IMG/VR virus record: IMGVR_UViG_3300032086_003216
Coordinates: 1 to 52,940 of that record
Origin: a virus
Taxonomy: Duplodnaviria; Caudoviricetes
Length of the DNA: 52,940 nt
Direction: 5' to 3' (one strand)
Shown here: positions 1 to 12,363 of the stretch, one piece after another
Layout of the letters: every line of letters begins with the position of its first letter
Numbering within the stretch: position 1 is the stretch's first letter
Notes under the pieces: generated by a model
What the model was told of the DNA's origin: nothing
The model's input: only the letters and a program-made list of their open reading frames with translations
Databases searched by the model: none
Position numbers and translations under genes: made by a program

Positions 1-57
1 ATAGTGATATTTCAGGTTTTTGATGTGGGTATCCCCAAAATGTGCTATCCGCACCAT
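1..57 (-). CDS. Metallophosphoesterase-family nuclease (SbcD/Mre11/T4 gp47-like), N-terminus only; truncated by the window edge
   Basis: Not in the ORF track. Manual translation from ATG at 57 gives MVRIAHFGDTHIKNLKYHY, matching the calcineurin-like DxH motif I. An AAGGAG Shine-Dalgarno lies upstream. Confidence 0.7.
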   Translation of the reverse strand, partial: MVRIAHFGDTHIKNLKYHY

Positions 58-111
58 AGGCGCACTCCTTCTGTCAGTGTGTCTTATTGTACCAGAGGAT
101 GTTTAGGGTGT

Positions 112-516
112 TTAGGCTTTTATAGACCTACGGCGCATACGTCCAGTCATTTTGTCGAAGCGTGGCCTCATGTTAGCACGTCGGCTATTAATATATTTTT
201 GTACGATGGGTTCCACAAGTATCTCTGTTGAGAAATTTTTTGTTAGGTCTTCACGACCTATCTCATCAAACATTTCTTCAAGATGTTTTTTGATAATATC
301 CTCTGCCCGCAAAATATCCTCCATCGGAATGGCGGCACGCTCTTCTAGTGTCTCGCTTTCAGCAGGTTCCTCAGATTCTGCTTTAACGCAGTTTCTGTAT
401 GTTCTACCAAACATCTTTTTGGTTTTGCGAGTTTCGTGGGTCTTGTAGCCCTTCTGGCAACGTTCGTCAAGTTGCCTCTTCACCATCTCACGGATTTGTT
501 CTCTGGTGATTTTCAT
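112..516 (-). CDS. Class A leader protein with a basic Cys module (putative internal head/cargo protein)
   Basis: Starts MKITREQIREMVKRQLDE, then CQKGYK...YRNCVK, resembling the CWxGY...NCV motif of T4-like phage hypothetical proteins. ATGA overlap with the upstream gene. Confidence 0.75.
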   Translation of the reverse strand: MKITREQIREMVKRQLDERCQKGYKTHETRKTKKMFGRTYRNCVKAESEEPAESETLEERAAIPMEDILRAEDIIKKHLEEMFDEIGREDLTKNFSTEILVEPIVQKYINSRRANMRPRFDKMTGRMRRRSIKA

Positions 517-917
517 ACGTCCTTGATGCCGTAGTATTTCTTTGGTCCTCGACGAGGGTTCTCTGCTTTGCGTCCCATACTCTGGGCGAAAAGGTCAGTT
601 CGCTTTTCAAGGAATTTTGGACGGACAAGAACTTTATCGCCACGCTTGTAAGTGATCGAAGATGTTGATGCAATCGAGGGGTCATTCAGCAAGCGCAAAA
701 CAACAGTCGGGCGTCCATCCACATTACCCATTGCCGTTATTTCACCAACAGCGCCAGCCAAGATACTTCCTATAACATCGACTTCATCACCAATTTCAAA
801 TTCTAATTCTGGCATTGGTTCAAACTCTTTGGTTTGAAGTCCGTACTCTTCCGAGCCAAACTCTTTGAGTAACTCTTCTTGAATAATCTTTCGTAGTTGG
901 GTCTTGGTAATTTTCAT
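513..917 (-). CDS. Class A leader protein with a KOW/SH3-like motif
   Basis: Start moved to ATG 917 (MKITKTQLRKIIQEELLKE), 1 nt after the upstream TAA. FEIGDEVDVIGSILAGAVGEITAM fits a KOW motif. Confidence 0.75.
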   Translation of the reverse strand: MKITKTQLRKIIQEELLKEFGSEEYGLQTKEFEPMPELEFEIGDEVDVIGSILAGAVGEITAMGNVDGRPTVVLRLLNDPSIASTSSITYKRGDKVLVRPKFLEKRTDLFAQSMGRKAENPRRGPKKYYGIKDV

Positions 918-918
918 T

Positions 919-1269
919 TTAGATGTCCGAATCTGGTCCAACCAGTTTGTCTAGTTCAGCACTTGATATAGGTCCTTTGCCGACTGGTCCGTCATAGGAT
1001 GGTCCTTCAACGCCTTTTTGCAGAATAGCATAGAGGTCCGAAGCATAGGCTCTGGCTGCTGCCGAAATCTTCGCTCCGATCTTGGTTGTGCCAATTTCTT
1101 TGTATAGCAGTTCAGCCGTCTTCAATGCTGCTCTTGCGTCTTTATCACTCATCAAAGAGCGACCTGTTCCCAGAGGGCGGTCGTCTTCGGTAGCATACTT
1201 ATCTTCGCTAAGTTCTGCCTCCATCTCTTCTTTGATAATTTGTTGTAGTTGTTGTTTGGTGATCTTCAT
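919..1269 (-). CDS. Class A leader protein, unknown cargo
   Basis: Starts MKITKQQLQQIIKEEMEAELSE; 1-nt gaps to both neighbours. Confidence 0.75.
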   Translation of the reverse strand: MKITKQQLQQIIKEEMEAELSEDKYATEDDRPLGTGRSLMSDKDARAALKTAELLYKEIGTTKIGAKISAAARAYASDLYAILQKGVEGPSYDGPVGKGPISSAELDKLVGPDSDI

Positions 1270-1270
1270 T

Positions 1271-1525
1271 TTAGATATCCATCTTGCTCATATCTATATC
1301 GCCAACGGGCTTACCACTTGGTTTTGTTCCACCATGGCGGTTCTTCATAGCCAAAAGGTCATCCATTATTGCTTTTCCGTCAATGCCAGTTCTTTCTATG
1401 AAGTATTTGGCTTGTTTCATTAACATATCAAAGAAAACTTCCATTTCCATGCTATGTTCTTCGTTGAGTGTCTTTGTGAGTTCTTCTCTGATAACTTTTC
1501 GTAGTTGTTGTTTTGTGATTTTCAT
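1271..1525 (-). CDS. Class A leader protein, unknown cargo
   Basis: Start moved to ATG 1525 (MKITKQQLRKVIREELTKTLNE), with AGGGG upstream. Confidence 0.75.
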   Translation of the reverse strand: MKITKQQLRKVIREELTKTLNEEHSMEMEVFFDMLMKQAKYFIERTGIDGKAIMDDLLAMKNRHGGTKPSGKPVGDIDMSKMDI

Positions 1526-1529
1526 TTTT

Positions 1530-2246
1530 TTATCCCCTTGCAATTACGCTCAATAAATCTTCGGCTCGGGATGCCTGTTTAGCAGAGCGAACATCGTTGG
1601 ATGTTTGTCGGATGTCTATCAATAATTGTTCAAGTTCTTCCATGGCTTCCATAGCAGACATCGCATCCAGTCCTAGTTCTGCGTCAGCCATAGCCTGTAA
1701 ATCCTTGCCAGAGAGGCGGTCGCCCATCTCTTCGTCAAGTGCTTCTCTAATAACTTGTTGAAGTTGTGATTTAGTAATTCTCATTTTATTCTCCAAAGGT
1801 AATTCTGTTTGTGCTTCAGGTTCGCCGACCATTCCAGCGGGCTCTGGTCCTAAGTTCCTAAGGTCTGCAACATATTGCGCAACACCCTTCATAGTGGGGA
1901 GACTTATCTCACTTGGAGAAACATCGTCTTCGGCTCCCGCAAGGGGGTAGACCTGAACATCGTAACGTCCCATCATTCCAGCAGGGTCAATTGTCACTTC
2001 TGTATCCCTATAGTTAGTGAAGACAAGTTCGCCACGACTATAAAAGGCTTCGGCTTCAAAGAAAAGACCCAATTCAGCCATGATGGGCTCTACAAGTTTT
2101 TCCACCATAAGTCCAAGTTCGTGTCTGGTATCGTCGTTTCTGTCTTCAATATAGGCTCGGCGGGCTGCTTCTAATTTAGCAAACTCCATCTCGCCTTGGG
2201 TTTCTTCTTTGATTATTTGAAGAAGTTGCGTCTTTGTAATTTTCAC
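1530..2246 (-). CDS. Class A leader protein with a second, internal leader
   Basis: GTG start, MKITKTQLLQIIKEE. An in-frame MRITKSQLQQVIREALDEE begins at ATG 1784, preceded by GGAG. Confidence 0.75.
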   Translation of the reverse strand: MKITKTQLLQIIKEETQGEMEFAKLEAARRAYIEDRNDDTRHELGLMVEKLVEPIMAELGLFFEAEAFYSRGELVFTNYRDTEVTIDPAGMMGRYDVQVYPLAGAEDDVSPSEISLPTMKGVAQYVADLRNLGPEPAGMVGEPEAQTELPLENKMRITKSQLQQVIREALDEEMGDRLSGKDLQAMADAELGLDAMSAMEAMEELEQLLIDIRQTSNDVRSAKQASRAEDLLSVIARG

Positions 2247-2347
2247 TTACAGGCTCCTTTACATCCCGAACAGGAGCAGCATCCACAGCAGCAGCAACAA
2301 TGATTACTATTGAAAAGATTAACCAATTTGTGAAGCACGAGTTTCAT
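2243..2347 (-). CDS. 34-aa cysteine-rich peptide (metallothionein-like or RiPP-precursor-like)
   Basis: Manual translation MKLVLHKLVNLFNSNHCCCCCGCCSCSGCKGACK. GGAGG SD upstream; its TGA overlaps the GTG of the next gene (GTGA); it fills the gap between neighbours. Confidence 0.7.
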   Translation of the reverse strand: MKLVLHKLVNLFNSNHCCCCCGCCSCSGCKGACK

Positions 2348-2379
2348 TATGATCCCTCCAGGGTTTTCTTAAGTAGTTC

Positions 2380-3183
2380 CTAGAAACCAGCAAGTCTTAT
2401 GATATCAGAAGTTATCGCTAAGACAAAAATACCGAGCACTAGAACCGCACCAATAATATTTAGTACGTTCCTTGTCTTTACTGCCAATTTTTTGCGTCTT
2501 ACGCCCTCTACCGTAGACATCACAATATGTCCGCCGTCCAAAACAGGGATTGGCAGTAGATTGATAACCCCGAGATTGATAGAGAAAAAAGCAATCCAGT
2601 CTATTAAGAAACCCCAGTCGCCCGTTTCGGCACTGCGTTTTCTTGCTTGTTCTGTGAATTCATAGACTGCTACAGGTCCGCCAACCTCTTTGATGCCCAT
2701 AGGTTCTGGTCGTGGCATCGTTGCGGCTTCCCAAATGCTGCTATACATTCTTAGCGACACATTGTGAGCATACCCAGCAGCCTCTATCACCCCAATGCGA
2801 TGAGCCTGTGCCCCCTCAGGAACGTGAACGTCAGGGTATGGCTGTCCCACTAAGAATAAAAAATACAATGGCCAAGGCAACAACAAATTAAATACTGGAC
2901 CCATCACCGCAATAAACGCACGTCTCCACGGACCTGCTGCCCAAAATGATTGTGGATCTTGTTTTCTATTGTGATAGTCATCTTCTCCACGAGGTTTGAT
3001 GTAACCACCAAAAGGCAAGAGTGACAACCGCCACTCAGTTCCCCACATCTTCTTTTTGAGGAGGACTTTGCCAAAGCCTATTGAAAAACTATCGACGGCA
3101 ACGCCCACTGATCGGGCAGCAAGATAGTGCCCCAATTCGTGTATGAAAATTACTAAAACAATTATTCCAAGAAAGGTAAGCAC
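2380..3183 (-). CDS. rseP: Site-2 protease, M50 family intramembrane zinc metalloprotease (RseP-like, apparently PDZ-less)
   Basis: HELGH in TM1, FSIGFG and LSLLPFGGYIK motifs, GPVFN, and NLLPIPVLDGGH. GTG start with AGGAG SD. Confidence 0.9.
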   Translation of the reverse strand: MLTFLGIIVLVIFIHELGHYLAARSVGVAVDSFSIGFGKVLLKKKMWGTEWRLSLLPFGGYIKPRGEDDYHNRKQDPQSFWAAGPWRRAFIAVMGPVFNLLLPWPLYFLFLVGQPYPDVHVPEGAQAHRIGVIEAAGYAHNVSLRMYSSIWEAATMPRPEPMGIKEVGGPVAVYEFTEQARKRSAETGDWGFLIDWIAFFSINLGVINLLPIPVLDGGHIVMSTVEGVRRKKLAVKTRNVLNIIGAVLVLGIFVLAITSDIIRLAGF

Positions 3184-3632
3184 AAAGTTTCTCCTAGAGA
3201 CATTTGGTAGGATTGATATTCATACCTCGGAACTCCGTATCCAGGTATGTCCCACCTCTCTTTGATCCCAGGCGGTAAACGATGTTCTATCGGAGCCCAG
3301 AATTTTATATGATCATATATTCTTTTATTTTCTGCCTTGAGTCTTTTTATCTCTTCGTTTTGAAGTTCTATCTTGTTTTCAAGATTGCTAATTGCGTGGG
3401 TTGCTGCTTTTTCTAGTGTCCTTTCAAGTCCGCTTTCATTGAACAAGAACAACAAGAAGCCTGTATATATTCCACAGACCATTGCAGACAAAACAACAGT
3501 CCATACAACAGCCGAAAAATAGTTAGTCTTTATTTTATTATCAGGTGGGGAGACATCAATAATCTCAGGCTCATAAATAGATTCACGAGCATTGTCTCTC
3601 ATATTTCTATAGAAGTCTCTTTCCCTACTCAT
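3162..3632 (-). CDS. Single-pass membrane protein with a coiled coil
   Basis: Hydrophobic AVVWTVVLSAMVCGIYTGFLLFLF followed by heptad-like ISNLENKIELQNEEIKRLKAENKRI. Confidence 0.7.
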   Translation of the reverse strand: MSRERDFYRNMRDNARESIYEPEIIDVSPPDNKIKTNYFSAVVWTVVLSAMVCGIYTGFLLFLFNESGLERTLEKAATHAISNLENKIELQNEEIKRLKAENKRIYDHIKFWAPIEHRLPPGIKERWDIPGYGVPRYEYQSYQMSLGETLCLPFLE

Positions 3633-3658
3633 AAAGTAAATAGTTTGGGAAGGTTGTT

Positions 3659-4285
3659 TTAGTTCTTACGTTCGCCCTTTTTGCTTCTGCTCGATTGGTT
3701 TTTACAGAACTGCTTCATTGTAAAACCTTTAGGGTTAGAGCATTTATCTTTTCTTTTTTTTCGTTCCGCAGAAGACCACTCTTCTTTGATTCCGCCGCCT
3801 TTTGTTGCCCGCCAGCGGTTGCCTGTTTCTTTGCTTGGTTCCTCAACTTTGAGGGCTGGGTCTCGCTGTAGCCTCTTCCAAATGCTCTCACCAGCAGTTG
3901 TCTGCTTGGAGTCGCTATACAGAGTTCCATACCTATCAACTAGGAAGTTGTAGAGGTCGGTGATATAAAAGCCGCCACCCTTGACTTTGCGGACATTCCC
4001 AATAGCATAAGCATCTTCGTGTGGGTTGGTCGCAACATAAGCAATAGGTCTGTCGTCTTTATCAACCACAAACATTAGTTCGTCTTTGCCGAACTCACCA
4101 CCTGTAAAGAGTGCTATTTGGTGTCCCTTAAAATCACCAAGGTCTTGTCGCTTGGCTTTGCTGGGAGCATGTTCTTTATAAAAGTAATCTAGGCTCTTTT
4201 GTATTTCGCTTTGGTCGGTTGCTATATCAGCAATCTTCTCAACCTCTTTGATATACTTCCGCCACTCTGTTAGTAGTTTTTTCAT
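3659..4285 (-). CDS. Class B leader protein with a GNAT-like domain and a C-terminal basic Cys module
   Basis: Starts MKKLLTEWRKYIKE. LYNFL...LYSDSKQTTAGESIWKRL resembles a divergent phage GNAT pattern. After IKEE comes WS...CSNPKGFTMKQFC. Confidence 0.7.
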   Translation of the reverse strand: MKKLLTEWRKYIKEVEKIADIATDQSEIQKSLDYFYKEHAPSKAKRQDLGDFKGHQIALFTGGEFGKDELMFVVDKDDRPIAYVATNPHEDAYAIGNVRKVKGGGFYITDLYNFLVDRYGTLYSDSKQTTAGESIWKRLQRDPALKVEEPSKETGNRWRATKGGGIKEEWSSAERKKRKDKCSNPKGFTMKQFCKNQSSRSKKGERKN

Positions 4286-4286
4286 T

Positions 4287-4760
4287 CTACAACCCTCTTA
4301 CAATATCTTTGAGATGTAAATAGCCTCTGGCTTCATATTCATCATTTCTTTTGATTGAGTTGTCAATAGTTCCTCGTGTGAATTTTCTGCGGACAACTTG
4401 GTCTTCAAGAAATTGTAGCGGTTCTATGAAATTTTCTATGTCATCCCTTTTAAAAATCATACCGCCGCCTGCTTCTCTCATAAATTTTTGGGCTCCGCTT
4501 AACGCATACACGACATTGTTGATGGCTCTCGGAGAAGTGTTCCCTGAGAGGACTTCTTCAATTGCCTCATCAAATCGTTTAAGTTGACTTACTATTCGGC
4601 GAAGGTCAGTTACCTTCTCCATCTCTTCGTCTCCCAAAGAATCCAACAGGAATATAGCGTGTGAAGGAGATGATACAAATGCTTTGGCAATAGCATCCAT
4701 TTCCCGAGTTATTACAACTTCGTTCAAATACTTCCGCCACTCTGTTAGTAGTTTTTTCAT
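4287..4760 (-). CDS. Class B leader protein, unknown helical cargo
   Basis: Starts MKKLLTEWRKYLNE; ATGA overlap with the upstream gene. Confidence 0.75.
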   Translation of the reverse strand: MKKLLTEWRKYLNEVVITREMDAIAKAFVSSPSHAIFLLDSLGDEEMEKVTDLRRIVSQLKRFDEAIEEVLSGNTSPRAINNVVYALSGAQKFMREAGGGMIFKRDDIENFIEPLQFLEDQVVRRKFTRGTIDNSIKRNDEYEARGYLHLKDIVRGL

Positions 4761-5173
4761 TGTTCCATCACCATTACTGGGTTTCCGCCACTATCTTTGC
4801 CGACAACCTCAAAGCCATATCCTTCATACCAATCTACTAGACTGAAACCTTCTGCTTGGCTTTGTCCCAAGTCGGCTATGAGTATTGTAGTGTAAGCACC
4901 CGCATCAGCGGCTTGGCTCATAAAGTCTTCAACCAATTGGTTTCCAACACCTTGTCCTCTGTTTTCTTCGGGGACAAAAGCATTTTTCATTATAGCAACA
5001 GGTAGTTCAAGGTTTTGTATCACCTCTTCACTAACCCCTTCTTTGTTCGCCCAGTTCATTAGCCGGTCGATATTGTTATGAATAACACCATCAATAGTAG
5101 CACCATCTACATCAATTGATATTTCTTGGGCTTCTTTCAAAAACTTCCGCCACTCTGTTAGGAGTTTTTTCAT
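4757..5173 (-). CDS. Class B leader protein carrying a GNAT N-acetyltransferase
   Basis: Start moved to ATG 5173 (MKKLLTEWRKFLKE, ATGA overlap). Motif A VPEENRGQGVGNQLV and motif B LVDWYEGYGFEVVG. Confidence 0.85.
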   Translation of the reverse strand: MKKLLTEWRKFLKEAQEISIDVDGATIDGVIHNNIDRLMNWANKEGVSEEVIQNLELPVAIMKNAFVPEENRGQGVGNQLVEDFMSQAADAGAYTTILIADLGQSQAEGFSLVDWYEGYGFEVVGKDSGGNPVMVMEQ

Positions 5174-5745
5174 TTGTTTTTTTGTTTCCCCACAATACGC
5201 ACCTGCTTGGGTGAAAATACAGAAATGTTTTTCTCGCCGTCGCCGGTAACATAGAAGGCGTCGTAGCCTTGTGATTTCATCCATTGTTTCATTTGGGGGG
5301 TCTCCATTATATCGTAGTCCATACGCATTATAGAATGGAACGAGCCGCCGTAGGCTTCCATCTCATCATATTCATCGTCTTCATTTTTAATAAGACCTTC
5401 AAAGATTTCGTTATTTACTAACGCATCGTAAAGTTTCTGACCTTCTGGGTTTAGCTGCTCTCTTTCTGGGGGGTAAGCGGCATTTTCATCTGATAGAAGG
5501 TTAGAAGTGTCAAAGGCATTCTGGAAGTCCAGAGCCACTTCGTATATAATCCCGTCTTTTCCAGTAGCGTATAGTTTAGCAAAGTCCTTAGAAGGGGAGA
5601 AGAATAGGGAAGTCTCTGCGGCGGTGTTGCCAAAAGTGTGAAAAAACGTCGTCTCAAAATCATCAAAGTCTTTCGTGGAACCGTGGTACCATACTTCGCT
5701 ACCCTCGGCTAGATACTTCCGCCACTCTGTTAGGAGTTTTTTCAT
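5170..5745 (-). CDS. Class B leader protein carrying an ADP-ribosyltransferase-like domain (polyvalent-protein type)
   Basis: MKKLLTEWRKYLAE, then WYHGS..DFDDF, LFFSPSKDFAKLYA, IYEVALDFQN, GYDAF and SVFSPKQV. Confidence 0.7.
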   Translation of the reverse strand: MKKLLTEWRKYLAEGSEVWYHGSTKDFDDFETTFFHTFGNTAAETSLFFSPSKDFAKLYATGKDGIIYEVALDFQNAFDTSNLLSDENAAYPPEREQLNPEGQKLYDALVNNEIFEGLIKNEDDEYDEMEAYGGSFHSIMRMDYDIMETPQMKQWMKSQGYDAFYVTGDGEKNISVFSPKQVRIVGKQKNK

Positions 5746-5927
5746 TTTTTCTTTTTTGCCTTATCTTTTTCCAACGAATCCATCCCCCTCTTTAGCAGGT
5801 CAACTTGCCCGAGGGGTGCTGTTGTAGTAATGGCATCGACAAACGTTTCAAGCCAGCCCTTTTCTTTTTTCTTTTGCTCCACTACTTGCCGAACAATTTT
5901 TCTTAATTCATTGATTTTTATTTTCAT
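5742..5927 (-). CDS. Small basic protein with a class A-like leader
   Basis: MKIKINELRKIVRQVVE; ATGA overlaps on both sides. Confidence 0.65.
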   Translation of the reverse strand: MKIKINELRKIVRQVVEQKKKEKGWLETFVDAITTTAPLGQVDLLKRGMDSLEKDKAKKKK

Positions 5928-6748
5928 ATTCCTACCGCCTCTGGATATTTTGTTTTAGCGAACGCAATATATTTATCACGCAGTTCCTTAAAAAAGAAGT
6001 CTTTGAGTTCTTCTTCTGTATATTGAACTCTGTATTCCCCAGGAGTTTCTCTCTCGTCTTCGGCGTTCATCTTGTCTCGGCGTCGGCGGAACATATCAAA
6101 GAATTGTTTGAGACGTCTATCCAGTGCTTCCGTGTAGGGTATCTTGTAATACTTTGCTCTTTTGTAAACTTCTTTGGTGTAAGAATCTGTTTCAGATTCC
6201 GAAGCATAATATCCACGGACACCATCAAGGTTGTTATAGTTCCAGTTGATTCCGCCCATAGGGTTGTAAGTGCGAGGGTCAGAAGTTTTCAGCACATCAT
6301 CGGTTTGACCGCCGTGCTGGATCTCGTGGATGGTGACTGATTTGAGTTCGCCAAGATAAGAGTTAAGGTCTTGCTCATTGAAGCCGATATCTAGATAACT
6401 ACTGACTGTCATATAACTATCTCTTGGGTCCTGTGAGTCTCCCATAAAAGCCCCGCCGATTTGGAACTTGTCCCCTGTTTCTTCTGCTAGTTTTTTATCA
6501 ATGTAAAATTTGAACGAAACAGAGTACATCTTTTCGTCAAGTTCTTTTGGTAATGCTTCACCTCTTTCGTATCTTTTGGGTGTTACGACTATCAGGTCCT
6601 TGCGTGAGTTCTGGACATTCTCGCTGGGGATAACCTCGTCAATAATATATTTGACATAAGGTATTACCTTGCGGGTTAGTTCTGTTGTGGCTGCTTCGTA
6701 CCTTCCCTCTTGGAGAAAGCCTCGCCACTGCTCCATAATCAGTTTCAT
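5924..6748 (-). CDS. Class B leader protein with a zincin-like metallopeptidase motif
   Basis: MKLIMEQWRGFLQE; VTIHEIQHGGQ (HExxH) and a downstream YYASESETDSY candidate third-ligand Glu. Confidence 0.65.
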   Translation of the reverse strand: MKLIMEQWRGFLQEGRYEAATTELTRKVIPYVKYIIDEVIPSENVQNSRKDLIVVTPKRYERGEALPKELDEKMYSVSFKFYIDKKLAEETGDKFQIGGAFMGDSQDPRDSYMTVSSYLDIGFNEQDLNSYLGELKSVTIHEIQHGGQTDDVLKTSDPRTYNPMGGINWNYNNLDGVRGYYASESETDSYTKEVYKRAKYYKIPYTEALDRRLKQFFDMFRRRRDKMNAEDERETPGEYRVQYTEEELKDFFFKELRDKYIAFAKTKYPEAVGI

Positions 6749-7245
6749 TACGTTGGGTCCACTGCTCTACTCACATCTATAGTACGTCCGCTATAAGTTC
6801 CTGCAAGCCATCTTTTTAGTATTTGGTTCATATTGAATTCTTCAGAATCAAGTCTCATTTGAGCAAGATTTGAATTATCCTTTCCTACTTCTTCAATAAA
6901 CCATTGCACAAATGCTTCTTCAACATCGTTGTCAACAATAGCTGCGATCTTATCGTCTATCCGAAAAAGTTTTAAAAACTCTTGAGGCTTTGGTGGCTTC
7001 TTAGCAACATATGAATTGAAGAGGAACTTTACCAGAGGTGCTGCACTGACTGAACCAGCAGCATCTTTTGCCCAATCTACAATTGCCTTAGCCCCCTCTT
7101 TTGCCCTTCCCTTAGAACGAATGATTTTCATAAACTCAACCATATCGCCCAAGGTTTGCAGATTTTGACTTTGTATGAATTGTTGCATATCCTCAGTCAG
7201 TACTTCTTTTTGATAATTGCGCCATTCTGTCATTATTTTTTTCAT
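6748..7245 (-). CDS. Class B leader protein, unknown cargo
   Basis: MKKIMTEWRNYQKEVLTE; overlapping junctions with both neighbours. Confidence 0.75.
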   Translation of the reverse strand: MKKIMTEWRNYQKEVLTEDMQQFIQSQNLQTLGDMVEFMKIIRSKGRAKEGAKAIVDWAKDAAGSVSAAPLVKFLFNSYVAKKPPKPQEFLKLFRIDDKIAAIVDNDVEEAFVQWFIEEVGKDNSNLAQMRLDSEEFNMNQILKRWLAGTYSGRTIDVSRAVDPT

Positions 7246-7841
7246 CGTGATTGTACCTTATAAGTTTTTTGCTTACCGCCTGCAAATGTGTCTGTTTTAA
7301 AATCGTCCTTACGCATGACTGTAATTACTTTTATAGTGTCTGGTCCTTTTCGCATATCTAATACTGCGATGACGTTGAGGGCGGGGACTTTGCCTTTGCC
7401 GACCATACGAATATGGAATGGCTCGTCGTTGCCAAGTTCGCCGTTCGCATAGTCCTGAATGATTTTGCCGATGGCTAGTTCAACCGCTTGGATAATTGCT
7501 CGGTTAGAAATTTTCTCATCGTGGCGGAACTGGCGTTCCTTGCTGTGCTTGGTTGCTTCAAGGTCTGTGTCCTTTAAATTAATAATGACGTTGACGCCAC
7601 GAACTTTTGTGCTATATGCTTGTTCGGCGTCAAGGTCAGCCATCTTTTCTTCCATGAGGTGGTCGGCTGGGCGTCCTTGACTTATCCAGTCTTCAACAAC
7701 AAATACTTTTTGGTCTTCCGATAAATTCCAGAAAACCTCTTGGAGTTCTTCGCTCAAACGAGAGGCGTATTGCTTGTAAACCTTTTCGTTTACCTTTTGT
7801 ACTTTGACAAAATTACGCCACTCGGTCATCAACTTTTTCAT
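7242..7841 (-). CDS. Class B leader protein with a possible RelE/BrnT-like RNase domain
   Basis: Start moved to ATG 7841 (MKKLMTEWRNFVK, TAATG overlap). C-terminal ATKHSKERQFRH...IKVITVM pattern. Confidence 0.6.
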   Translation of the reverse strand: MKKLMTEWRNFVKVQKVNEKVYKQYASRLSEELQEVFWNLSEDQKVFVVEDWISQGRPADHLMEEKMADLDAEQAYSTKVRGVNVIINLKDTDLEATKHSKERQFRHDEKISNRAIIQAVELAIGKIIQDYANGELGNDEPFHIRMVGKGKVPALNVIAVLDMRKGPDTIKVITVMRKDDFKTDTFAGGKQKTYKVQSR

Positions 7842-8305
7842 TAGTCGTCCCCGAAGTCGTTTCTTTCCTGCCACTCGTAGGATACGCTGTCTTCTTTGAT
7901 TGGTCCGCCTTTTGCCCAAGTGCGGCAAGAGCGAGCAGAGTGACACTTGAAGTGATGCATCCAGCAGTAGCCAAGCCTACCATCGTCGTCAGAAGTCACG
8001 CCTGGCATACAGTCGTCCATTCGTGGGGAAATATCAAAAGCGGTGCAATTGCCGCAGTTAGACTTTTTGGCAGCCTCTTCGGTCGTGTTCCAATATTCGG
8101 CTATGTCTTTCCAGTAATCACCTGGTTCATCTACATTGAGTGGTCCATACTGGATATGTTCTGCCTTAATGGAGGCGTCACGATTCTTTGTGTTGAGTTC
8201 TAGGTCTTGGGTCGCAGGCGGACAAACAAAATCTTTTGCTGCCTTGATAACAACCTTCATCTCCTCTTGGAGAAATTTTCTCCACTCGGTCATCAGTTGT
8301 TTCAT
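7841..8305 (-). CDS. Class B leader protein with a Cys-rich, HiPIP-like metal-binding domain
   Basis: MKQLMTEWRKFLQEE; CGNCTAF...GYCWMHHFKCHSARSCRTW. Confidence 0.65.
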   Translation of the reverse strand: MKQLMTEWRKFLQEEMKVVIKAAKDFVCPPATQDLELNTKNRDASIKAEHIQYGPLNVDEPGDYWKDIAEYWNTTEEAAKKSNCGNCTAFDISPRMDDCMPGVTSDDDGRLGYCWMHHFKCHSARSCRTWAKGGPIKEDSVSYEWQERNDFGDD

Positions 8306-8701
8306 TTACCACTTCCTACAGGACCAGTAGCGTGCCTTTGTCTTAGGACCTGGATTATCGCAATTGTGGCGGGCACGGAACGACTTACGGCGTTCGGGGT
8401 TAGACTTCTTAATCCTCATATTGGGATCACCAAAGTTTACTTTCTTGACATTACCAGTCTTGGGATCTTTGACATAAACTTTAAATTTCTTTACGTCCCC
8501 ACGCATTGGTTTGTTCAATTGAACCTTGCGTCCTTGATACTCAGCCTCTACAAGTGTGTCGTCCCAAAACTCTACGTCCTCAGCCAAGGTCCCGTCATCA
8601 TAAGATGCATCTTCAATATAAAAATATTCTTCATCTTCAGAGAGAAAATGAGATACTTCCTCTTTTATCAACTGTCGTAAGTATGACTTTGTTATTTTCA
8701 T
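8306..8701 (-). CDS. Class A leader protein with a conserved basic viral domain
   Basis: MKITKSYLRQLIKEE and an acidic linker ending LVE, then a basic domain KKVNFGDPNM...RRKSFRARHNC...ARYWSCRKW that I recognise as widespread in viral hypothetical proteins. Confidence 0.8.
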   Translation of the reverse strand: MKITKSYLRQLIKEEVSHFLSEDEEYFYIEDASYDDGTLAEDVEFWDDTLVEAEYQGRKVQLNKPMRGDVKKFKVYVKDPKTGNVKKVNFGDPNMRIKKSNPERRKSFRARHNCDNPGPKTKARYWSCRKW

Positions 8702-9540
8702 CCTTTTTTACCTGCCTTTGATTTTTTGCCGTAGTTGCCTCGCTCTCCACACGCTGATGGTGTTGGTCGGCACTTCGGATACTTTGCTCGTTTTTCGCCG
8801 CTTTCACGACCGCAGGCACTGCATTTCTTTCTGCCTGTCTTTTTATCTTTGCGGCAGGTGTTGCAATCCACCCATCCGCTTTTACTACCCTTGGCACCTT
8901 TGCGACCAAACCAGTCACGCAGACTTGTTTCAGACGAAGGTTTCTTGGTTAGTTTTCTTTTCTTTTCCTCGATAGGTTCTTCTTCGAGGTTCTCATCTTT
9001 TTTTACAGAGTTGATATATTTTCTGTAAACTGCGGCAGCAGATGCTTTACCCGCTGCCTTGGCTCTTTGTTCCATAGCAACAGCCGCCTGGACTTTATGA
9101 GCGTGTGAACGGCTGGAGTTTCTAATCTTGGATACGCTTTTCTTTGCGTCTGCCTCAGTGGCGAACTTCAGTCCGTGGATTGTACCCTTGGGGTCTTCGT
9201 CGGTGTAAAGGTCGCTGTGTTTTTTTGACTTTGCCTTTTGTCCCTTTTTTCTTGGGATGCGAGGATTAGTTTTTTTTTCAGCCAACTCCGCAATCGCTTC
9301 ACGGATCATATCACGCAAAGGATCTTGTTCGACACCTTCTTTCTTGCTCTTATTACCCCAGTTAGCAGCGCCGACTTTTCGACACTTTACCAAAGCACCA
9401 GAAGCATAAGCGGAAGGCCAAACATCATAGCGTGCCTTAACCTTATGATAACAAGCATCTTTCTTGCCACCGCTCTTCTTTTTCTTCTCGACAAGAGCCT
9501 GCTCTATCATCGTTCGAAGTTGAGACATTGTTATTTTCAT
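8698..9540 (-). CDS. Class A leader protein made of three basic modules
   Basis: MKITMSQLRTMIEQALVE; modules DACYHKVK..WPSAYASGALVKCRK, NPRIPRKKGQ..HSDLYTDEDPKGTIHGL and SLRDWF..GWVDC..YPKCRP, separated by acidic linkers. Confidence 0.8.
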   Translation of the reverse strand: MKITMSQLRTMIEQALVEKKKKSGGKKDACYHKVKARYDVWPSAYASGALVKCRKVGAANWGNKSKKEGVEQDPLRDMIREAIAELAEKKTNPRIPRKKGQKAKSKKHSDLYTDEDPKGTIHGLKFATEADAKKSVSKIRNSSRSHAHKVQAAVAMEQRAKAAGKASAAAVYRKYINSVKKDENLEEEPIEEKKRKLTKKPSSETSLRDWFGRKGAKGSKSGWVDCNTCRKDKKTGRKKCSACGRESGEKRAKYPKCRPTPSACGERGNYGKKSKAGKKG

Positions 9541-9549
9541 TCTGTGCCC

Positions 9550-10497
9550 TCATGCTTGTAAAGCAATCTTGAATAAATAGGCATCAGAATCAATAAAAGG
9601 CGCATCTTCTTTGCGTTGGTCAAAAACTTCTTGTGGCATCTCGCCAATGTCTTTGTAACCAGACGTGTCCATCAGTCGAACTTCTACATCATAAGCCAGC
9701 AAAGCCTTCACAAGTTTCATGGCTTTTTTGTGTGCATCGGCATCCAATCCCAACAGGACTGGTGTATCGTTTTTTACAATCTTTCTGAAGAGTCTGCTGT
9801 CTTCCCGAAGTGTTGAGCCGAGCAGTGGAATACTGTTCTCGCCAGCAACGATTGCGTCAAAGACACCCTCGACCAAGGTGACCTCTCGTTCCCAGTCAAT
9901 CAGCAGTTCGTTAAAGATGATATCTTTGTTGCCTGGTCCGTTGAGATAGGGAGGCCAGACATTAGGGTCATATGTGCGGGACGTAAAAAAGTTACAGTAG
10001 CCTTCTTCGTCAAACGATGGGAGAATAATTCTATTTTTGTATTCGCCAGAAGCGCAGTAGCCGATCTTCCAATAAAGGACGTCTCTTTGCTCAACGGCAC
10101 GTTTACGGAGATAGTTTAGGGGCACTCTTGCAGAGGCAGGATGAGAGCGACCAGTTAGTGTTTGAAACTCACTTGGAAGGTCGATTCGCTGCGGAGAATC
10201 TTCTTCCTTAGCAAACAGGTTATCTAGGTCGCCTAACTCAATATCAGCGTCAAAATCTTTCCATCTATGGATATGACTTACATCGCCCCAACGCCTGACT
10301 AGGCGTCGTAAATTTTTGGTGCGGAAGTCGCACGCCCAACATTTGGCTACGTTCTTGTCAAAGTTGACTGATAGTTTGGGTTTGTGGTGCGAGCAACAGC
10401 GGGACTCGTATAGATACTCCTTACCTTGACGATACGCTCTGCCGAGTATCTCGTCAAGGATTTTCTTTTTCTTCGCTGAGTTAGGGTCGCTAAACAA
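9550..10497 (-). CDS. Phage DNA primase (zinc finger plus TOPRIM)
   Basis: N-terminal CCSHH...CWAC zinc-binding region, YLRKR, RIILP, TOPRIM LVEGVFDAI, LDAD and KDIGE. Confidence 0.9.
   Translation of the reverse strand: MFSDPNSAKKKKILDEILGRAYRQGKEYLYESRCCSHHKPKLSVNFDKNVAKCWACDFRTKNLRRLVRRWGDVSHIHRWKDFDADIELGDLDNLFAKEEDSPQRIDLPSEFQTLTGRSHPASARVPLNYLRKRAVEQRDVLYWKIGYCASGEYKNRIILPSFDEEGYCNFFTSRTYDPNVWPPYLNGPGNKDIIFNELLIDWEREVTLVEGVFDAIVAGENSIPLLGSTLREDSRLFRKIVKNDTPVLLGLDADAHKKAMKLVKALLAYDVEVRLMDTSGYKDIGEMPQEVFDQRKEDAPFIDSDAYLFKIALQA
9574..9580 (-). promoter_or_regulatory. Putative phage late-promoter core CTATTTA upstream of the leader-gene array
   Basis: CCTATTTATT within the primase 3' end, about 34 nt before ATG 9540. 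The same core recurs before several other gene starts. Confidence 0.45.
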
Positions 10498-11103
10498 TCA
10501 CAGCCCGAGTTCTTTGAGTTGTGCGATCGTTGCCGCAACATTGTCAGGGTCGTGCTTGATGGCAATGCCACCGCCCGCTCGGAACTCGTTGACGTACTTA
10601 TCTCGGTCGTCAATCAAAAGTCCTTGCTTGCCGTTCCAAACTCCGTAGGGCTCTTTGCTGTCAGAAAGGTTGACCTTCTCAACTGGGAATCCCAACTCAC
10701 GAGCAACCCAGATTCGCTTACCAACCTTAGAGCCTTCCGCCATCGGAGCCGACAAGATTTCCAACCCTGGGATATCCTTGATGTAATCCCAAAGTTCTTT
10801 GCCGCCACGTTCCCAGCCGAGGTTTGCCCAAAGATCGACGTTGTCTTCAACCAGTCGGTACATAAAGTCTCGGACACGATAGTTCCGAGGCAGGCTGCTT
10901 TCCTGATCAGAGCGAGCAATGTGCCACTTGTTGATTACCACATCCCAGCCGCCAAGTTCTTTGGCTGCCGATCGGGCAAGTTTGTGGTCAGGATGATCAG
11001 GCTCGTGGCGAAGTTCTCGCAGGCGCTTGTTCATATAACTCAGGACACCATCCTCAAAGTTGACGAGGACACCATCCATATCACTAAACACTTGGTATCT
11101 CAT
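10498..11103 (-). CDS. HAD-superfamily 5'(3')-deoxyribonucleotidase-like protein
   Basis: DMDGVLVNF motif I, ILSAP, GKRIWV and LLIDDR. Start moved to ATG 11103, which has a GGAGG SD. Confidence 0.85.
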   Translation of the reverse strand: MRYQVFSDMDGVLVNFEDGVLSYMNKRLRELRHEPDHPDHKLARSAAKELGGWDVVINKWHIARSDQESSLPRNYRVRDFMYRLVEDNVDLWANLGWERGGKELWDYIKDIPGLEILSAPMAEGSKVGKRIWVARELGFPVEKVNLSDSKEPYGVWNGKQGLLIDDRDKYVNEFRAGGGIAIKHDPDNVAATIAQLKELGL

Positions 11104-11125
11104 GGGGACACCTCCCTCCATAAGT

Positions 11126-11153
11126 ATAATACCACAGGTTTTGTTTAGGTCAA
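11126..11153 (-). promoter_or_regulatory. Sigma70-like promoter for the nucleotidase-primase pair
   Basis: TTGACC-N16-TATTAT with TG at the extended -10 position, in an intergenic gap. Confidence 0.55.
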
Positions 11154-11160
11154 GTAATTT

Positions 11161-11760
11161 TTACTTATCTTCTTGTGCGTCGAGATATGCTGCTATAGCC
11201 ATCTCTTGCTTTTTCTTTTTTGATTTGCCCTTAAATTGCGGGGCTTTCGATTTACGGAAGTCTTTGACATAATCGCCTGCTGTAGAATCCTTGTCAAGTT
11301 TTTCTCCCATAATATGATCATACTCAAGGTAATGTTTGACTACGCCAATGTAGTCTGCTATCTTTGTAATCTTGCTCTGAATCCAGGCTGGCATATGATC
11401 GTCATCTTCTAGCATATCAAAAATCTCAGCGGCGTATTCGGCTGTCTTATACATTTGGCGCTTTGCCATATCACCTTCGTGATCTTTTTCTTTATTGTGG
11501 TGATCAACACCCATATCAATTGATTGCATGTGCATGTCACCACAGGCCTCTTCAATTTCTGCTGGTTCTATATCATCGGGCTCAGTCATTTTTGCCACCT
11601 CAGCACGCAAGGAGTTGGCTACCTTGACTGCATCAGATTTAGAGAGATTAGAGATCTGAGAATACAGAGTATTCACTTTCTTGTCCACTTCTGAAGCAGA
11701 CATCTGTTTTTCTATTTCTTCTCTTATTAGAGATGAGATAATTTCTTTCGTAAGAATCAT
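11161..11760 (-). CDS. Class A-like leader protein with two conserved phage modules
   Basis: MILTKEIISSLIREEIE; DHEGDMAKRQ...MPAWIQSKITKIADY module and DYVKDFRKSKAPQFKGKSKKKKQEMAIAAY module. Confidence 0.75.
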   Translation of the reverse strand: MILTKEIISSLIREEIEKQMSASEVDKKVNTLYSQISNLSKSDAVKVANSLRAEVAKMTEPDDIEPAEIEEACGDMHMQSIDMGVDHHNKEKDHEGDMAKRQMYKTAEYAAEIFDMLEDDDHMPAWIQSKITKIADYIGVVKHYLEYDHIMGEKLDKDSTAGDYVKDFRKSKAPQFKGKSKKKKQEMAIAAYLDAQEDK

Positions 11761-11775
11761 ACAATAAATAGATTG

Positions 11776-12351: not shown

Positions 12352-12363
12352 ATAGGGAGTATA

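Follow-up and report, generated by a model that had tools for sequence, protein, structure and literature searches.

What do the shared N-termini of about 17 otherwise unrelated small proteins do for a marine, T4-like phage? The stretch of DNA analysed here (the window, 52.9 kb) is a fragment representing 28% of the genome, and it carries the genes in question within positions 112-11760, all on the minus strand. Two leaders account for most of them: leader A (MKITKxQLRxIIKEE), found in seven genes plus one internal copy, and leader B (MKKLLTEWRKYLxE), found in eight genes. Two further genes, starting at 5927 and 11760, have weak variants. A first-pass annotation had compared the leaders to the capsid-targeting sequence (CTS) of T4 internal proteins, and every computational test able to refute that analogy favoured it. 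Our analysis suggests that both leaders are probably T4-type capsid-targeting propeptides that combine targeting with cleavage; that the cargo is then ejected as effectors is an even call.

A mixed array of leader-bearing genes

The genes of the region are as follows.

112..516, minus strand: leader-A gene, 134 aa; N-terminus MKITREQIREMVKRQLDE; LDE ends at residue 18; basic body
513..917, minus strand: leader-A gene, 134 aa; N-terminus MKITKTQLRKIIQEE; IQE at residues 12-14
919..1269, minus strand: leader-A gene, 116 aa; IKE at 12-14; LSE ends at 22
1271..1525, minus strand: leader-A gene, 84 aa; IRE at 12-14; LNE ends at 22
1530..2246, minus strand: leader-A gene, 238 aa; GTG start
2380..3183, minus strand: Peptidase_M50 (3.9e-57), site-2-protease-like membrane metalloprotease; without leader; separates the A and B blocks
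3162..3632, minus strand: single-pass membrane protein, 156 aa; without leader; CTATTTA directly upstream at 3643
3659..4285, minus strand: leader-B gene, 208 aa; N-terminus MKKLLTEWRKYIKE; basic body
4287..4760, minus strand: leader-B gene, 157 aa; …YLNE
4757..5173, minus strand: leader-B gene, 138 aa; body weakly GNAT acetyltransferase-like, under Pfam cut-offs
5170..5745, minus strand: leader-B gene, 191 aa; ART-PolyVal ADP-ribosyltransferase body (Pfam 6.3e-15, above cut-off) matching from residue 18; …YLAE ends at residue 14
5742..5927, minus strand: weak leader variant, 61 aa; MKIKINELRKIVRQVVE
5924..6748, minus strand: leader-B gene, 274 aa; MKLIMEQWRGFLQE then GRYEAATTELTR; HExxH motif in body
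6748..7245, minus strand: leader-B gene, 165 aa; …NYQKEVLTE; LTE ends at residue 18
7242..7841, minus strand: leader-B gene, 199 aa; …NFVKVQKVNE; VNE ends at residue 19
7841..8305, minus strand: leader-B gene, 154 aa; Cys-rich body
8306..8701, minus strand: leader-A gene, 131 aa; leader, acidic linker to …TLVE (residue 52), then basic domain (AEYQGRKV…)
8698..9540, minus strand: leader-A gene, 280 aa; MKITMSQLRTMIEQALVE; very basic body (phrog_727); CTATTTA upstream at 9580, as for the orthologue in relative G001
9550-10497, minus strand: primase; without leader
10498-11121, minus strand: nucleotidase; without leader
11161..11760, minus strand: weak leader variant, 199 aa; MILTKEIISSLIREE; IRE at 12-14; CTATTTA directly upstream at 11771

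The array of 17 proteins first described is real as far as its leader genes go, but it is a mixed one, interrupted by four genes without leaders (M50, membrane protein, primase and nucleotidase). The window is collinear with G001, a syntenic relative whose 190.5-kb record is rated 100% complete; 33 of 43 compared window proteins match it at about 27-90% amino acid identity, the product of gene 7242-7841 being 90% identical to its orthologue. Gene 1530-2246 contains a second in-frame leader-A copy (MRITKSQLQQVIRE, start at nt 1784, residue 155), which was missing from the first-pass list; the G001 orthologue shares this two-leader form.

In the window the array adjoins baseplate and fibre genes. 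Alt-family genes are likewise described as adjoining baseplate genes, and T4 Alt as the prototype ADP-ribosyltransferase that is packaged and injected (PMC5512222). In both the window and G001, replication genes (primase, nucleotidase, RuvC) rather than the head module surround most leader genes, a placement that counts against the CTS reading. The motif ACTATTTA, oriented with the genes, was counted 19 times on the G001 coding strand (about 5-6 expected) and a single time on the opposite one. It lies upstream of the scaffold, sheath and tube genes and of several leader genes in G001, but because it also precedes non-structural genes it is no proof of late expression.

The leaders are conserved as peptides

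A leader HMM recovered all eight leader-B starts reported earlier (4285, 4760, 5173, 5745, 6748, 7245, 7841, 8305) at 26-32 bits, and no other leader-B match exceeded 7 bits in the whole 52.9-kb window. For leader A, seven of the nine reported starts (516, 917, 1269, 1525, 2246, 8701, 9540) scored 14-32 bits; the HMM did not detect those at 5927 (MKIKINELRKIVRQ) and 11760, whose weak variants resemble N-termini also seen in relatives.

Leader similarity begins at the ATG and is over after about 14 codons. We compared 26 A and 21 B leaders, taken from the window and two relatives: pairwise nucleotide identity averaged 0.31 (A) and 0.28 (B) in the 45 nt upstream, 0.72 and 0.73 within the leader, and 0.32 and 0.30 in the 45 nt that follow. 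Identity at codon positions 1/2/3 was 0.77/0.84/0.54 for leader A and 0.72/0.87/0.62 for leader B, and each conserved residue is encoded by 2-5 synonymous codons. Since third positions are the least similar, selection acts on the leader peptide.

Public viral contigs supplied 159 leader-A and 59 leader-B proteins, and positions outside the search pattern are strongly conserved among them. Leader A has K/R13 in 143/159 and E14 in 154/159; leader B has F/Y11 in 56/59, L/I12 in 52/59 and E14 in 51/59. Across the 59 leader-B proteins, from many contigs, W8, R9, [FY]11, L12 and E14 are maintained, and conservation drops sharply beyond residue 14. Leader A decays gradually past E14, with E15 in 104/159 and a second peak at L19/20 and E22. 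The Glu that follows E14 in these 104 proteins, where the inspected T4 sites have Ala, would count against the CTS reading.

Could the repeated 5' coding stretch instead act as nucleic acid, as a translation-initiation enhancer or a patch of recombination homology, the peptide being functionless? Four leader-B genes (starts 4285-5745) are near-identical in their first 33 nt, a pattern that recent duplication or gene conversion would produce; gene packing is tight, many of the genes show no obvious ribosome-binding site, and homology patches probably help gene shuffling. Nevertheless, we consider this explanation extremely unlikely, given the onset of similarity exactly at the ATG (upstream identity 0.28-0.31), the poor conservation of third codon positions (0.54/0.62 versus 0.84/0.87 at position 2), the synonymous codons and the five residues retained throughout leader B.

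Both leaders have [LI]-x-E at residues 12-14, and their aromatic/aliphatic-x-x-aromatic/aliphatic-[LI]-x-E spacing fits the T4 CTS, MKTYQEFIAE; the N-termini of T4 Alt, gp24, gp22 and gp21 share this form. In the T4 CTS, residues 4 and 7 are described as serving targeting, and residues 8 and 10 processing (PMC9026906, PMC8442874). The first-pass annotation had similarity stopping at an [LIV]-x-E site. Such a site does end exactly at residue 14 in 12/17 window proteins, whereas in the other five the one nearest the leader end finishes at residue 17-19; each of the 17 contains at least one that is complete by residue 22. Each site variant it listed (LDE, LKE, LSE, LNE, IKE, LAE, LQE, LTE, LVE) is present. 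The bodies are unrelated, as it had stated: from residue 23 onward, the 17 yielded only two marginal short BLASTP pairs (E 0.004 and 0.009). Beyond residue 14, the pI is acidic (4.1-5.5) for 10/17 bodies, which counts against the CTS reading, since the abundant T4 internal proteins are basic.

Leaders and bodies combine modularly

The 232 leader-bearing bodies form 151 BLASTP clusters, 115 of them singletons, and one cluster mixes members with leader A and members with leader B. Homologues of the 7841-8305 body, annotated in other phage records as high-potential iron-sulfur protein, number 2013 and have very diverse N-termini; B-type, A-type and T4-CTS-like (…KKFIAE) forms all occur among the best 120. 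In 3/3 podovirus or siphovirus records, the 8306-8701 body has no extension and begins at MAKYQG, MAKYKG or MATYKG, whereas T4-like myophages add an extension that ends L-V-E, L-T-E, L-E-E or L-D-E in 4/5; the fifth has M-M-E at the junction. Across these two families and that of gene 5924-6748, cargo domains take varied leaders, or, for one of them, none in phages that are not T4-type, with [LIV]-x-E at the junction, in agreement with the CTS analogy.

In the 5924-6748 family, a body anchor can be recognised close to the N-terminus in 27 of 55 representatives. The leaders of 26 of these 27 differ in class and length and end in [LIV]-x-E exactly 6 residues before the anchor. In principle, this [LIV]-x-E/G could belong to the domain itself, as its first turn, rather than mark a cut site. 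The HExxH body of the window member gives a weak atlas match to LPD23/SprT-like domains, which we treat as a lead only.

Leader-bearing sets include ADP-ribosyltransferase (ART), GNAT-like, kinase-like and transglutaminase-like enzymes. From 17 to at least 28 genes are tagged per genome, with at least 28 in the examined parts of one jumbo relative. At 20 or more species per genome, the cargo is far more numerous than in T4, which raises the question of head capacity. It is also not obvious that iron-sulfur-protein-like and GNAT-like bodies would fit as injected effectors.

Protease, capsid protein and head modules of relatives

As a 28% fragment, the window contains neither head genes nor a protease, and its S77 protease is therefore inferred from relatives. 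G001 encodes TerL, portal, an S77/gp21-type protease, a gp22-like acidic scaffold and a gp23-like capsid protein. The protease matches PF03420 (1e-31) and phrog_207 (6e-54) and is 35% identical to T4 gp21 (E 1e-25). In alignment, the T4 gp23 cut site, FLTE/AEIGG, falls opposite QLLRE/T of the G001 capsid protein and QLLKE/S of its G002 counterpart. The packaging-tag proposal called for a Glu-specific prohead protease, and the T4-like relatives encode a protease of the gp21 family, together with L-x-E at the T4 capsid cut. S77 proteases occur in 13/14 large (147-367 kb) contigs, which are phylogenetically non-independent and all leader-bearing; the single contig without a match is an 81%-complete record.

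Leader genes are found within head modules. In G002, a canonical leader-A gene lies immediately 5' of the protease gene and a MKKSELKSLIKE… gene, also found in G001, immediately 3'. In LR756508.1, a 484-kb uncultured phage, the protease gene lies amid 12 small genes whose N-termini are leader-A-like, and the cluster has a portal-side gene on one side and scaffold and capsid genes on the other. These two cases of leader-A or leader-A-like genes adjoining the protease gene agree with the T4 analogy.

The protease encoded in the array offers a different reading, in which Peptidase_M50 removes both leaders, or leader B at minimum, as pro-sequences, and activation or localisation takes place at the host membrane instead of in the capsid, much as SpoIVFB removes the N-terminal pro-sequence of pro-sigma-K. 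The M50 gene sits mid-array, is 82% identical in G001, occurs in 4/5 close leader-B relatives and adjoins the B block in G002. Yet only 5/14 large leader-bearing contigs (1/9 leader-A jumbo contigs) have M50, compared with the S77 count above; G005 (an 81%-complete record) has leader-B genes, and M50 was not found in it; and in G003 and G004 the M50 gene is distant from the B genes. The leaders are charged amphipathic peptides and not membrane helices, and we know of no L-x-E requirement among M50 proteases. We regard this reading as very unlikely.

It is unlikely, too, that the leaders are helices that dock proteins on a hub other than the prohead (RNA polymerase, ribosome, a chaperone or a phage-encoded partner), giving takeover proteins a shared intracellular address or shared regulation during infection, without packaging. 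The leaders are amphipathic, helix-like and conserved at the protein level, replication genes and not head genes surround most of the array, and the cargo enzymes could act equally well if expressed early. What a docking hub leaves unexplained is the near-invariant terminal [LI]-x-E in two unrelated leader classes, the exact position of [LIV]-x-E at the leader/body junction while leaders change, the protease-flanking genes in head modules, and the podovirus and siphovirus versions of a domain without the extension.

A further alternative accepts prohead targeting and cleavage and makes the tagged proteins disposable core or scaffold, degraded and expelled rather than delivered, as are most T4 gp22, gp67 and gp68. 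Leader-like genes do occupy a gp67/gp68-like position by the protease gene in G002 and LR756508.1, and many bodies are small, acidic and rich in additional L-x-E sites. Structural scaffold would not need unrelated, enzyme-bearing, fast-exchanged bodies (151 clusters; ART), however, and some bodies are compact basic domains conserved in many phage types. Although decidedly unlikely as a general account, this reading may hold for a subset of the tagged proteins.

Discussion

For T4-type capsid targeting, we infer core binding, cleavage, head retention and ejection of the tagged proteins. Each leader would form an amphipathic N-terminal helix of about 14 residues, with hydrophobic positions 4/5, 8, 11 and 12 in leader B and 3, 8, 11 and 12 in leader A, that may dock the tagged protein on the scaffolding core during prohead assembly. 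A gp21-family (S77) prohead protease would then cleave following [L/I]-x-Glu at residue 14, and also at further L-x-E sites in acidic linkers, such as LVE-52 of gene 8306-8701. The freed cargo (the ADP-ribosyltransferase, a GNAT-like protein, the HExxH protein, basic DNA-binding-like proteins and many unknowns) would be retained in the head with the DNA and most likely enter the host cell alongside it.

The closest known system is the gp21-processed CTS of T4 IPI, IPII, IPIII and Alt, likewise a short N-terminal propeptide on otherwise unrelated proteins. Both systems end in (L/I)-x-E with the hydrophobic-x-x-hydrophobic-[LI]-x-E spacing, and both lineages have a gp21-family protease, a gp23-like capsid protein and an ADP-ribosyltransferase among the cargo. 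The leaders differ in being 14 residues or more, versus 10, and in forming two new sequence classes without alignable homology to the T4 CTS. Moreover, T4 has about 4 tagged genes, against the 17 to at least 28 per genome counted here; acidic cargos are numerous in the leader phages, and one cargo can exchange its tag class. More distantly, phage P1 Dar and encapsulins use a short terminal peptide or adaptor to load non-structural cargo into an HK97-fold shell, as proposed here, with different targeting sequences and partners; encapsulin tags are C-terminal and uncleaved.

The giant phages phiKZ, 201phi2-1 and SPN3US are described as having tens of head-internal proteins processed by an S80 protease (gp175/gp245), several inner-body or ejection proteins having N-terminal propeptides cut at x-x-E; paralogues gp53 and gp54 have identical N-terminal 15-mers, and paralogue numbers differ widely among phages of this type (PMC5694885). 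On that account, their S80 sites are A/S/G-x-E and their head proteins are paralogous families, whereas the leader phages have S77, L/I at P3, and unrelated bodies that share only the tag. Polyvalent proteins (Iyer et al. 2017, PMC5512222) are predicted, like the leader cargo, to accompany the DNA into the host as infection begins, and the ART-PolyVal domain occurs in both. As described there, they fuse 2-15 effector domains in one giant polypeptide, the opposite architecture to one small tagged gene per domain.

That T-even internal proteins are diverse, with only the CTS conserved, has been reported (PMC3012670, PMC9026906). Diverse internal proteins with a common CTS are thus already known from T4; the novelty lies in the sequences of the leaders, in the lineage and in the scale. 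A tag this short and self-contained would turn any gene acquiring it into cargo, and such portability would explain both the arrays of unrelated bodies and the exchange of leader classes on one body.

Two leader peptides on an array of unrelated proteins

All genes of the 52.9-kb window lie on the minus strand, and they are densely packed from 11760 down to 112. The first-pass annotation had described 17 small proteins here, united only by two kinds of N-terminal leader, and hidden Markov models (HMMs) of leader A (MKITKxQLRxIIKEE-type) and leader B (MKKLLTEWRKYLxE-type) show that the two families are real. Canonical leaders begin 15 of the 17 genes; the other two listed starts, 5927 and 11760, carry weak variants only. 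The list was also incomplete, as it lacked an internal leader-A copy, so that the HMMs recognize eight copies of A (one internal) and eight of B in the window and nothing comparable in its remainder.

Features of the window
4285, 4760, 5173, 5745, 6748, 7245, 7841, 8305 (minus strand): starts of the eight leader-B genes, near-identical over their first 14 residues (HMM)
516, 917, 1269, 1525, 2246, 8701, 9540 (minus strand): starts of the seven leader-A genes (HMM)
5927, 11760 (minus strand): starts of the two genes with weak leader variants
1784 (minus strand): second in-frame leader-A copy, residue 155 of gene 1530-2246
2380-3183 (minus strand): Peptidase_M50 membrane protease (3.9e-57), leaderless, within the array
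Within the array, also leaderless: small membrane protein, DnaG-type primase, nucleotidase
Immediately upstream of the array region: RuvC-like resolvase
Remainder of the window: baseplate proteins (gp25-like, gp6-like), M15 peptidase domain, GDP-sugar modification cluster, ORFs of 1142-3672 aa
15997-19893 (1298 aa), 19896-23324 (1142 aa), 24284-35302 (3672 aa), 39018-44900 (1960 aa) (minus strand): four very large ORFs near the baseplate genes
49068-52896 (minus strand): sugar-nucleotide cluster with GDP-mannose 4,6-dehydratase, NAD-dependent epimerase/reductase, cupin, short-chain dehydrogenase and xylose-isomerase-like TIM-barrel protein

The ORF with two leaders has the same layout in its orthologue in G001, a 190.5-kb syntenic relative, and may represent two fused cargo genes, an internal start nested in the frame, or a protein cleaved into two parts. 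The M50 gene embedded in the array is full length and site-2-protease-like, with an HExxH motif and multiple membrane passes; it is 82% identical in G001, and four of five close relatives have it, compared with only one of nine jumbo contigs bearing leader A. Roles as fibres or in host recognition are presumed for the four very large ORFs, which match almost no known family (a single weak Laminin_G_3 match) and share only 27-47% identity with their G001 counterparts. A tRNA gene search found none.

As had been claimed, the bodies that follow the leaders are unrelated: there is no significant pairwise similarity among the 17. A shared N-terminal propeptide on unrelated mature parts is the arrangement of T4-type tagged proteins. 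Ten of the 17 bodies are acidic. The only one with a Pfam match above the cut-off is ART-PolyVal in gene 5170-5745, where the match begins at residue 18, just past the leader. In polyvalent proteins, as part of one account describes them, such domains are fused into giant polypeptides (PMC5512222). The leader genes encode only 61-280 aa, each with at most one recognizable domain, which rules out membership of that class.

The leaders are conserved as peptides

Could the role of the leaders lie at the level of nucleic acid? We compared pairwise nucleotide identity for 26 A leaders and 21 B leaders, taken from the window and from two relatives. Identity is high within the leader and falls to about 0.3 on either side, and within the leader it is lowest at the third codon position.

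Table. Mean pairwise nucleotide identity in and around the leaders
Region	Leader A	Leader B
45 nt upstream of ATG	0.31	0.28
Leader	0.72	0.73
45 nt after leader	0.32	0.30
Leader, codon position 1	0.77	0.72
Leader, codon position 2	0.84	0.87
Leader, codon position 3	0.54	0.62

Each conserved leader residue is encoded by 2-5 synonymous codons. Together, these patterns indicate that selection acts on the peptide and not on a promoter, a ribosome site or a patch for recombination, and so the codon analysis speaks against a nucleic-acid-level role. Four leader-B genes do have the DNA-level look of recent duplication or conversion.

A T4-like cut-site motif at the end of both leaders

Both leaders place an [LI]-x-E motif at residues 12-14 (I12-K13-E14 in A, L12-x-E14 in B). 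Of the 17 window proteins, 12 have an [LIV]-x-E whose Glu is residue 14, and all 17 have one that ends by residue 22; in the other five, the motif nearest the leader end stops at residues 17-19. A scan with a leader-A pattern returned at least 145 stretches, in contigs of up to 367 kb, and a leader-B DNA pattern matched 48 stretches, spread over about 29 viral contigs in public data. Conservation was counted over 159 A and 59 B proteins among the matches listed, leaving aside positions fixed by the search patterns. In leader B, F/Y11 is present in 56/59, L/I12 in 52/59 and E14 in 51/59, with a sharp drop in conservation past residue 14. In leader A, K/R13 is found in 143/159 and E14 in 154/159 of the matches listed; the residue after E14 is mostly Glu (E15 in 104/159), and conservation decays gradually to a second peak at L19/20 and E22 (65/159).

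In the T4 capsid targeting sequence (CTS), MKTYQEFIAE, residues 4 and 7 serve targeting and residues 8 and 10 processing, and the prohead protease gp21 cleaves after (L/I)-x-E, as described in section 2.6 of one review and in parts of a second source (PMC9026906; PMC8442874). The spacing of the CTS is kept in leader B (…W8-R-K-[FY]11-L12-x-E14) and leader A (…L8-R-x-I11-I12-K-E14), and the same form is seen at other T4 N-termini (Alt MELITELFDE, gp24 MAKINELLRE, gp22 MLKEQLIAE, gp21 MNEPQLLIE). What the leaders and the T4 CTS have in common is only the hydrophobic spacing and [LI]-x-E, in peptides too short for a test of homology.

Leaders change while cargo and junction persist

Three cargo families serve as natural experiments on the leader. 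Gene 8306-8701 encodes a basic domain that is widespread among marine phages. This domain starts the protein directly in 3/3 podovirus and siphovirus records (HTVC111P, MAKYKG…; CRP-901, MATYKG…; Kolga, MAKYQG…). In T4-like myophages it follows an N-terminal extension, and L-x-E abuts the domain start in 4/5: …TLVE/AEYQG in the window, …ELTE/AEYQG in C48C1, …PLEE/AEFQG in HTVC008M and …ELDE/GEYRG in immuto. In Melnitz the junction reads MME/SEYQG, and the domain there closes a long protein. The leader of C48C1 (MKKFKQYIDE) is itself T4-CTS-like; N-termini of this kind (also MKTFQEFMK… and …KKFIAE) are found with these cargo families among Kyanoviridae phages and metagenomic homologues.

An exhaustive HMMER search with gene 5924-6748 gave 55 representatives, of which 27 have a TTELTR-like body anchor in their first 80 residues. 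In 26 of these 27, [LIV]-x-E ends exactly six residues ahead of the anchor, under differing leader classes (B-type, A-type and others). The 28 representatives without the anchor are fragments, embedded copies or divergent, and several show the same junction by eye. Pfam searches of seven longer homologues (367-1010 aa) of this HExxH body gave none recognizable as a polyvalent protein. The Cys-rich body of gene 7841-8305, annotated as a high-potential iron-sulfur protein in other phage records, belongs to a family with very many members in marine data (2013 homologues). In the 120 best of these, the N-termini ahead of a conserved CP[PA]ATQDL include B-type, A-type (MRLTGTKLRSIIRE) and T4-CTS-like (MKDFDLKKFIAE…) forms.

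More broadly, 232 leader-bearing bodies from public contigs, among the matches listed, fall into 151 BLASTP clusters, 115 of them singletons, and one cluster mixes leaders, with A on some members and B on others. Only eight of 129 body-cluster representatives have any Pfam match at E<=0.001, most of them below curated cut-offs (ART-PolyVal three times, GNAT, kinase-like, transglutaminase-like, RMF and PepSY). PDB sequence searches with four bodies gave nothing useful, and protein-atlas look-ups with two gave sub-threshold leads only (LPD23/SprT-like and DUF4258).

A distant branch of the T4 superfamily

The window record is a 28%-complete fragment that carries no head genes, and so neither an S77 protease nor a capsid gene. 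In G001, which is rated 100% complete, the whole window is collinear, 33 of 43 compared window proteins match at about 27-90% amino acid identity, and the array spans both ends of the record. G001 encodes TerL, portal, an acidic gp22-like scaffold, a gp23-like capsid protein, sheath and tube, together with UvsX, a gp32-like protein, DnaB and ribonucleotide reductase. One 1050-aa ORF (G001 1806-4958), with an N-terminal SbcD-like and a C-terminal SbcC-like nuclease subunit match, looks like a fused gp47/gp46-type protein. The closest named phages are Flavobacterium phage immuto (capsid protein 45%, primase 34%), Microcystis phage Mel-JY01 and Rhodothermus phage RM378. The phage falls within the T4 superfamily as one of its distant members.

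It is also widespread. DNA near-identical to window 1-10000 (at least 91% of sampled words) is present in 19 marine, estuary and sediment metagenome runs, with 10 studies listed and no RNA runs among them. Against named phages, megablast of window 1-12000 gave no match; tblastn with short and therefore insensitive N-terminal queries gave a single weak match for leader A (25 aa; LR756508.1) and none for leader B (20 aa).

At 12 bits or more, the leader HMMs match 16 times in the window, 20 times in G001 and 18 times in G002, a further leader-bearing record. A more permissive N-terminal motif (hydrophobic-x-x-hydrophobic-[LI]-x-E within residues 1-22) is found in 26/222 G001 genes versus 58/2421 interior windows; since most of the 26 come from the two leader families, they do not count as independent events. 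In G007, a 293-kb jumbo record of which 120 kb was examined, an unbroken run of 21 leader-A genes occupies 47.6-56.6 kb, and seven more lie at 284.5-286.3 kb. Tagged genes number from 17 to at least 28 per genome.

Links to head assembly

The first-pass annotation had named the absence of a Glu-specific prohead protease as a reason to abandon the packaging idea. For the lineage this does not apply, because G001 encodes a gp21-like S77 protease (PF03420 1e-31; phrog_207 6e-54; 35% identity to T4 gp21, E 1e-25), as do other relatives. It is in relatives such as G001, not in the window record, that a T4-type gp21-family protease is found with a gp23-type capsid protein predicted to be cut at L-x-E. 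The T4 capsid maturation site FLTE/AEIGG has its aligned counterparts in QLLRE/T (G001 capsid protein) and QLLKE/S (G002), which suggests that protease specificity is conserved from T4 to these phages. Of 14 large leader-bearing contigs, 13 encode an S77 protease (4/5, 5/5 and 4/4 by group), a count that is not independent given that the genomes are related; the sole contig without a match is an 81%-complete record.

The M50 protease might instead be the leader peptidase. This reading is weakened because M50 is found in only 5 of the 14 large leader-bearing contigs, and not wherever leaders occur.

Some leader genes sit in the head module itself. In G002, the gene directly upstream of the protease gene, where T4 has genes 67 and 68, is a canonical leader-A gene (MKITKSHLRKIIKEEVSKVLSEE…, 115 aa), and a gene starting MKKSELKSLIKE…, also present in G001, lies directly downstream. 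In LR756508.1, a 484-kb uncultured phage, the protease gene is flanked by 12 small genes with leader-A-like N-termini (for example MKVTEEKLRKVIRRE, MKIQEQKLRGIIKEE and MEINRKQLRGLIKEE), which span from a portal-side gene to the scaffold and capsid genes. Most array genes are placed among replication genes, and two immuto genes, gp176 and gp177, whose products start MKKSELVKLIKEE and MKKSQLREIIRKE, lie ahead of the primase, near the equivalent spot of the window array. Between the protease and scaffold genes there is a ribosomal protein S21 homologue (phrog_21469) in both G001 (17197-17478) and G002 (locus L222, 10238-10528). A predicted complex of G001 scaffold, protease and leader-B residues 1-40, run without controls, had a score of zero; it gives no answer and weighs neither way.

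Alternatively, the leaders could be a common helix for a partner outside the capsid. That would leave unexplained the motif at the junctions, the placement of leader genes in the head module and the absence of the extension in phages that are not T4-type.

A promoter-like motif

The coding strand of G001 has 19 copies of ACTATTTA, where about 5-6 would be expected, and the opposite strand has one. Of 30 CTATTTA sites in G001, 20 lie 10-135 nt upstream of a start, compared with 13.5% of positions. Gene-oriented copies of (A)CTATTTA on the minus strand of the window are at 52121, 47636, 19939, 11771, 9580, 4323, 3643 and 3580. The G001 word ACTATTTA lies upstream of the genes for scaffold, sheath and tube, of some leader genes and also of non-structural genes. 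(A)CTATTTA is probably a promoter element of the lineage. The T4 late-promoter word TATAAATA is not enriched on the G001 coding strand (3, versus 14 on the other strand), and sigma-70-like promoters and intrinsic terminators in window 1-13000 are at shuffle or chance level.

Discussion

The T4 CTS is the textbook example of protein loading into a phage head, and it already serves as an engineering tool. To our knowledge, experimental work on such loading is limited to T-even phages and a handful of proteins. The principle of the tag is already in print for T-even phages, and a section of one review proposes that the CTS is perhaps a general protein-loading route of T4-like phages (PMC9026906). 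In the main texts of the open literature we found no description of these leaders or leader strings. The two leader classes themselves appear to be new, as do their co-existence and swapping on one cargo, their occurrence in an abundant uncultured lineage of far-T4 and jumbo marine phages, and arrays on the scale seen here. phiKZ-like phages have many processed ejection proteins in paralogous families, cut by an S80 protease at A/S/G-x-E sites, according to part of one study (PMC5694885). The relatives described here differ in using an S77 protease and in having L or I, not A, S or G, at P3, which excludes the leader proteins from the phiKZ/SPN3US type.

The reading of the leaders as T4-like capsid-targeting tags, proposed in the first-pass annotation, gains indirect support from the cut-site motif, the co-occurrence of S77, the genes in the head module and the junctions. 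Judged from sequence, it is the best-supported account: the amphipathic leader would dock its protein onto the scaffolding core, the S77 protease would cleave after E14 and at further L-x-E sites within acidic linkers, and the cargo would stay in the head with the DNA. By analogy with T4, and judging by the kinds of protein involved, the cargo probably enters the host along with the DNA. Several observations weaken this reading: most array genes lie among replication genes, ten of the 17 bodies are acidic, Glu usually follows E14 in leader A, the number of cargo species is very high, and the promoter-like motif also precedes non-structural genes. For a subset, the proteins may be packaged yet serve as disposable core components.

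A more far-reaching reading, which we consider rather unlikely as a whole, is that far-T4 and jumbo marine myophages have an injected proteome that can be read from sequence. Any gene acquiring a 14-residue tag with a terminal [LI]-x-E would turn into head cargo, with at least 20 cargos per genome (at least 28 in the part of G007 examined). The tag classes (A, B and T4-like) would be non-redundant, sorting docking site, copy number or release order, and a swap of tag would retune dose. If this were true, the first-minute takeover and anti-defence effectors of uncultured ocean phages could be listed from DNA alone, and the tags would form a natural set of orthogonal protein-packaging signals.

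If the leaders simply work as in T4, the principle reaches an abundant and mostly uncultured marine lineage, with about five to seven times the number of cargos in T4. They would provide new short packaging tags with built-in release sites. Moreover, a sequence rule would flag candidate injected proteins, among which anti-defence and host-takeover functions are to be expected.
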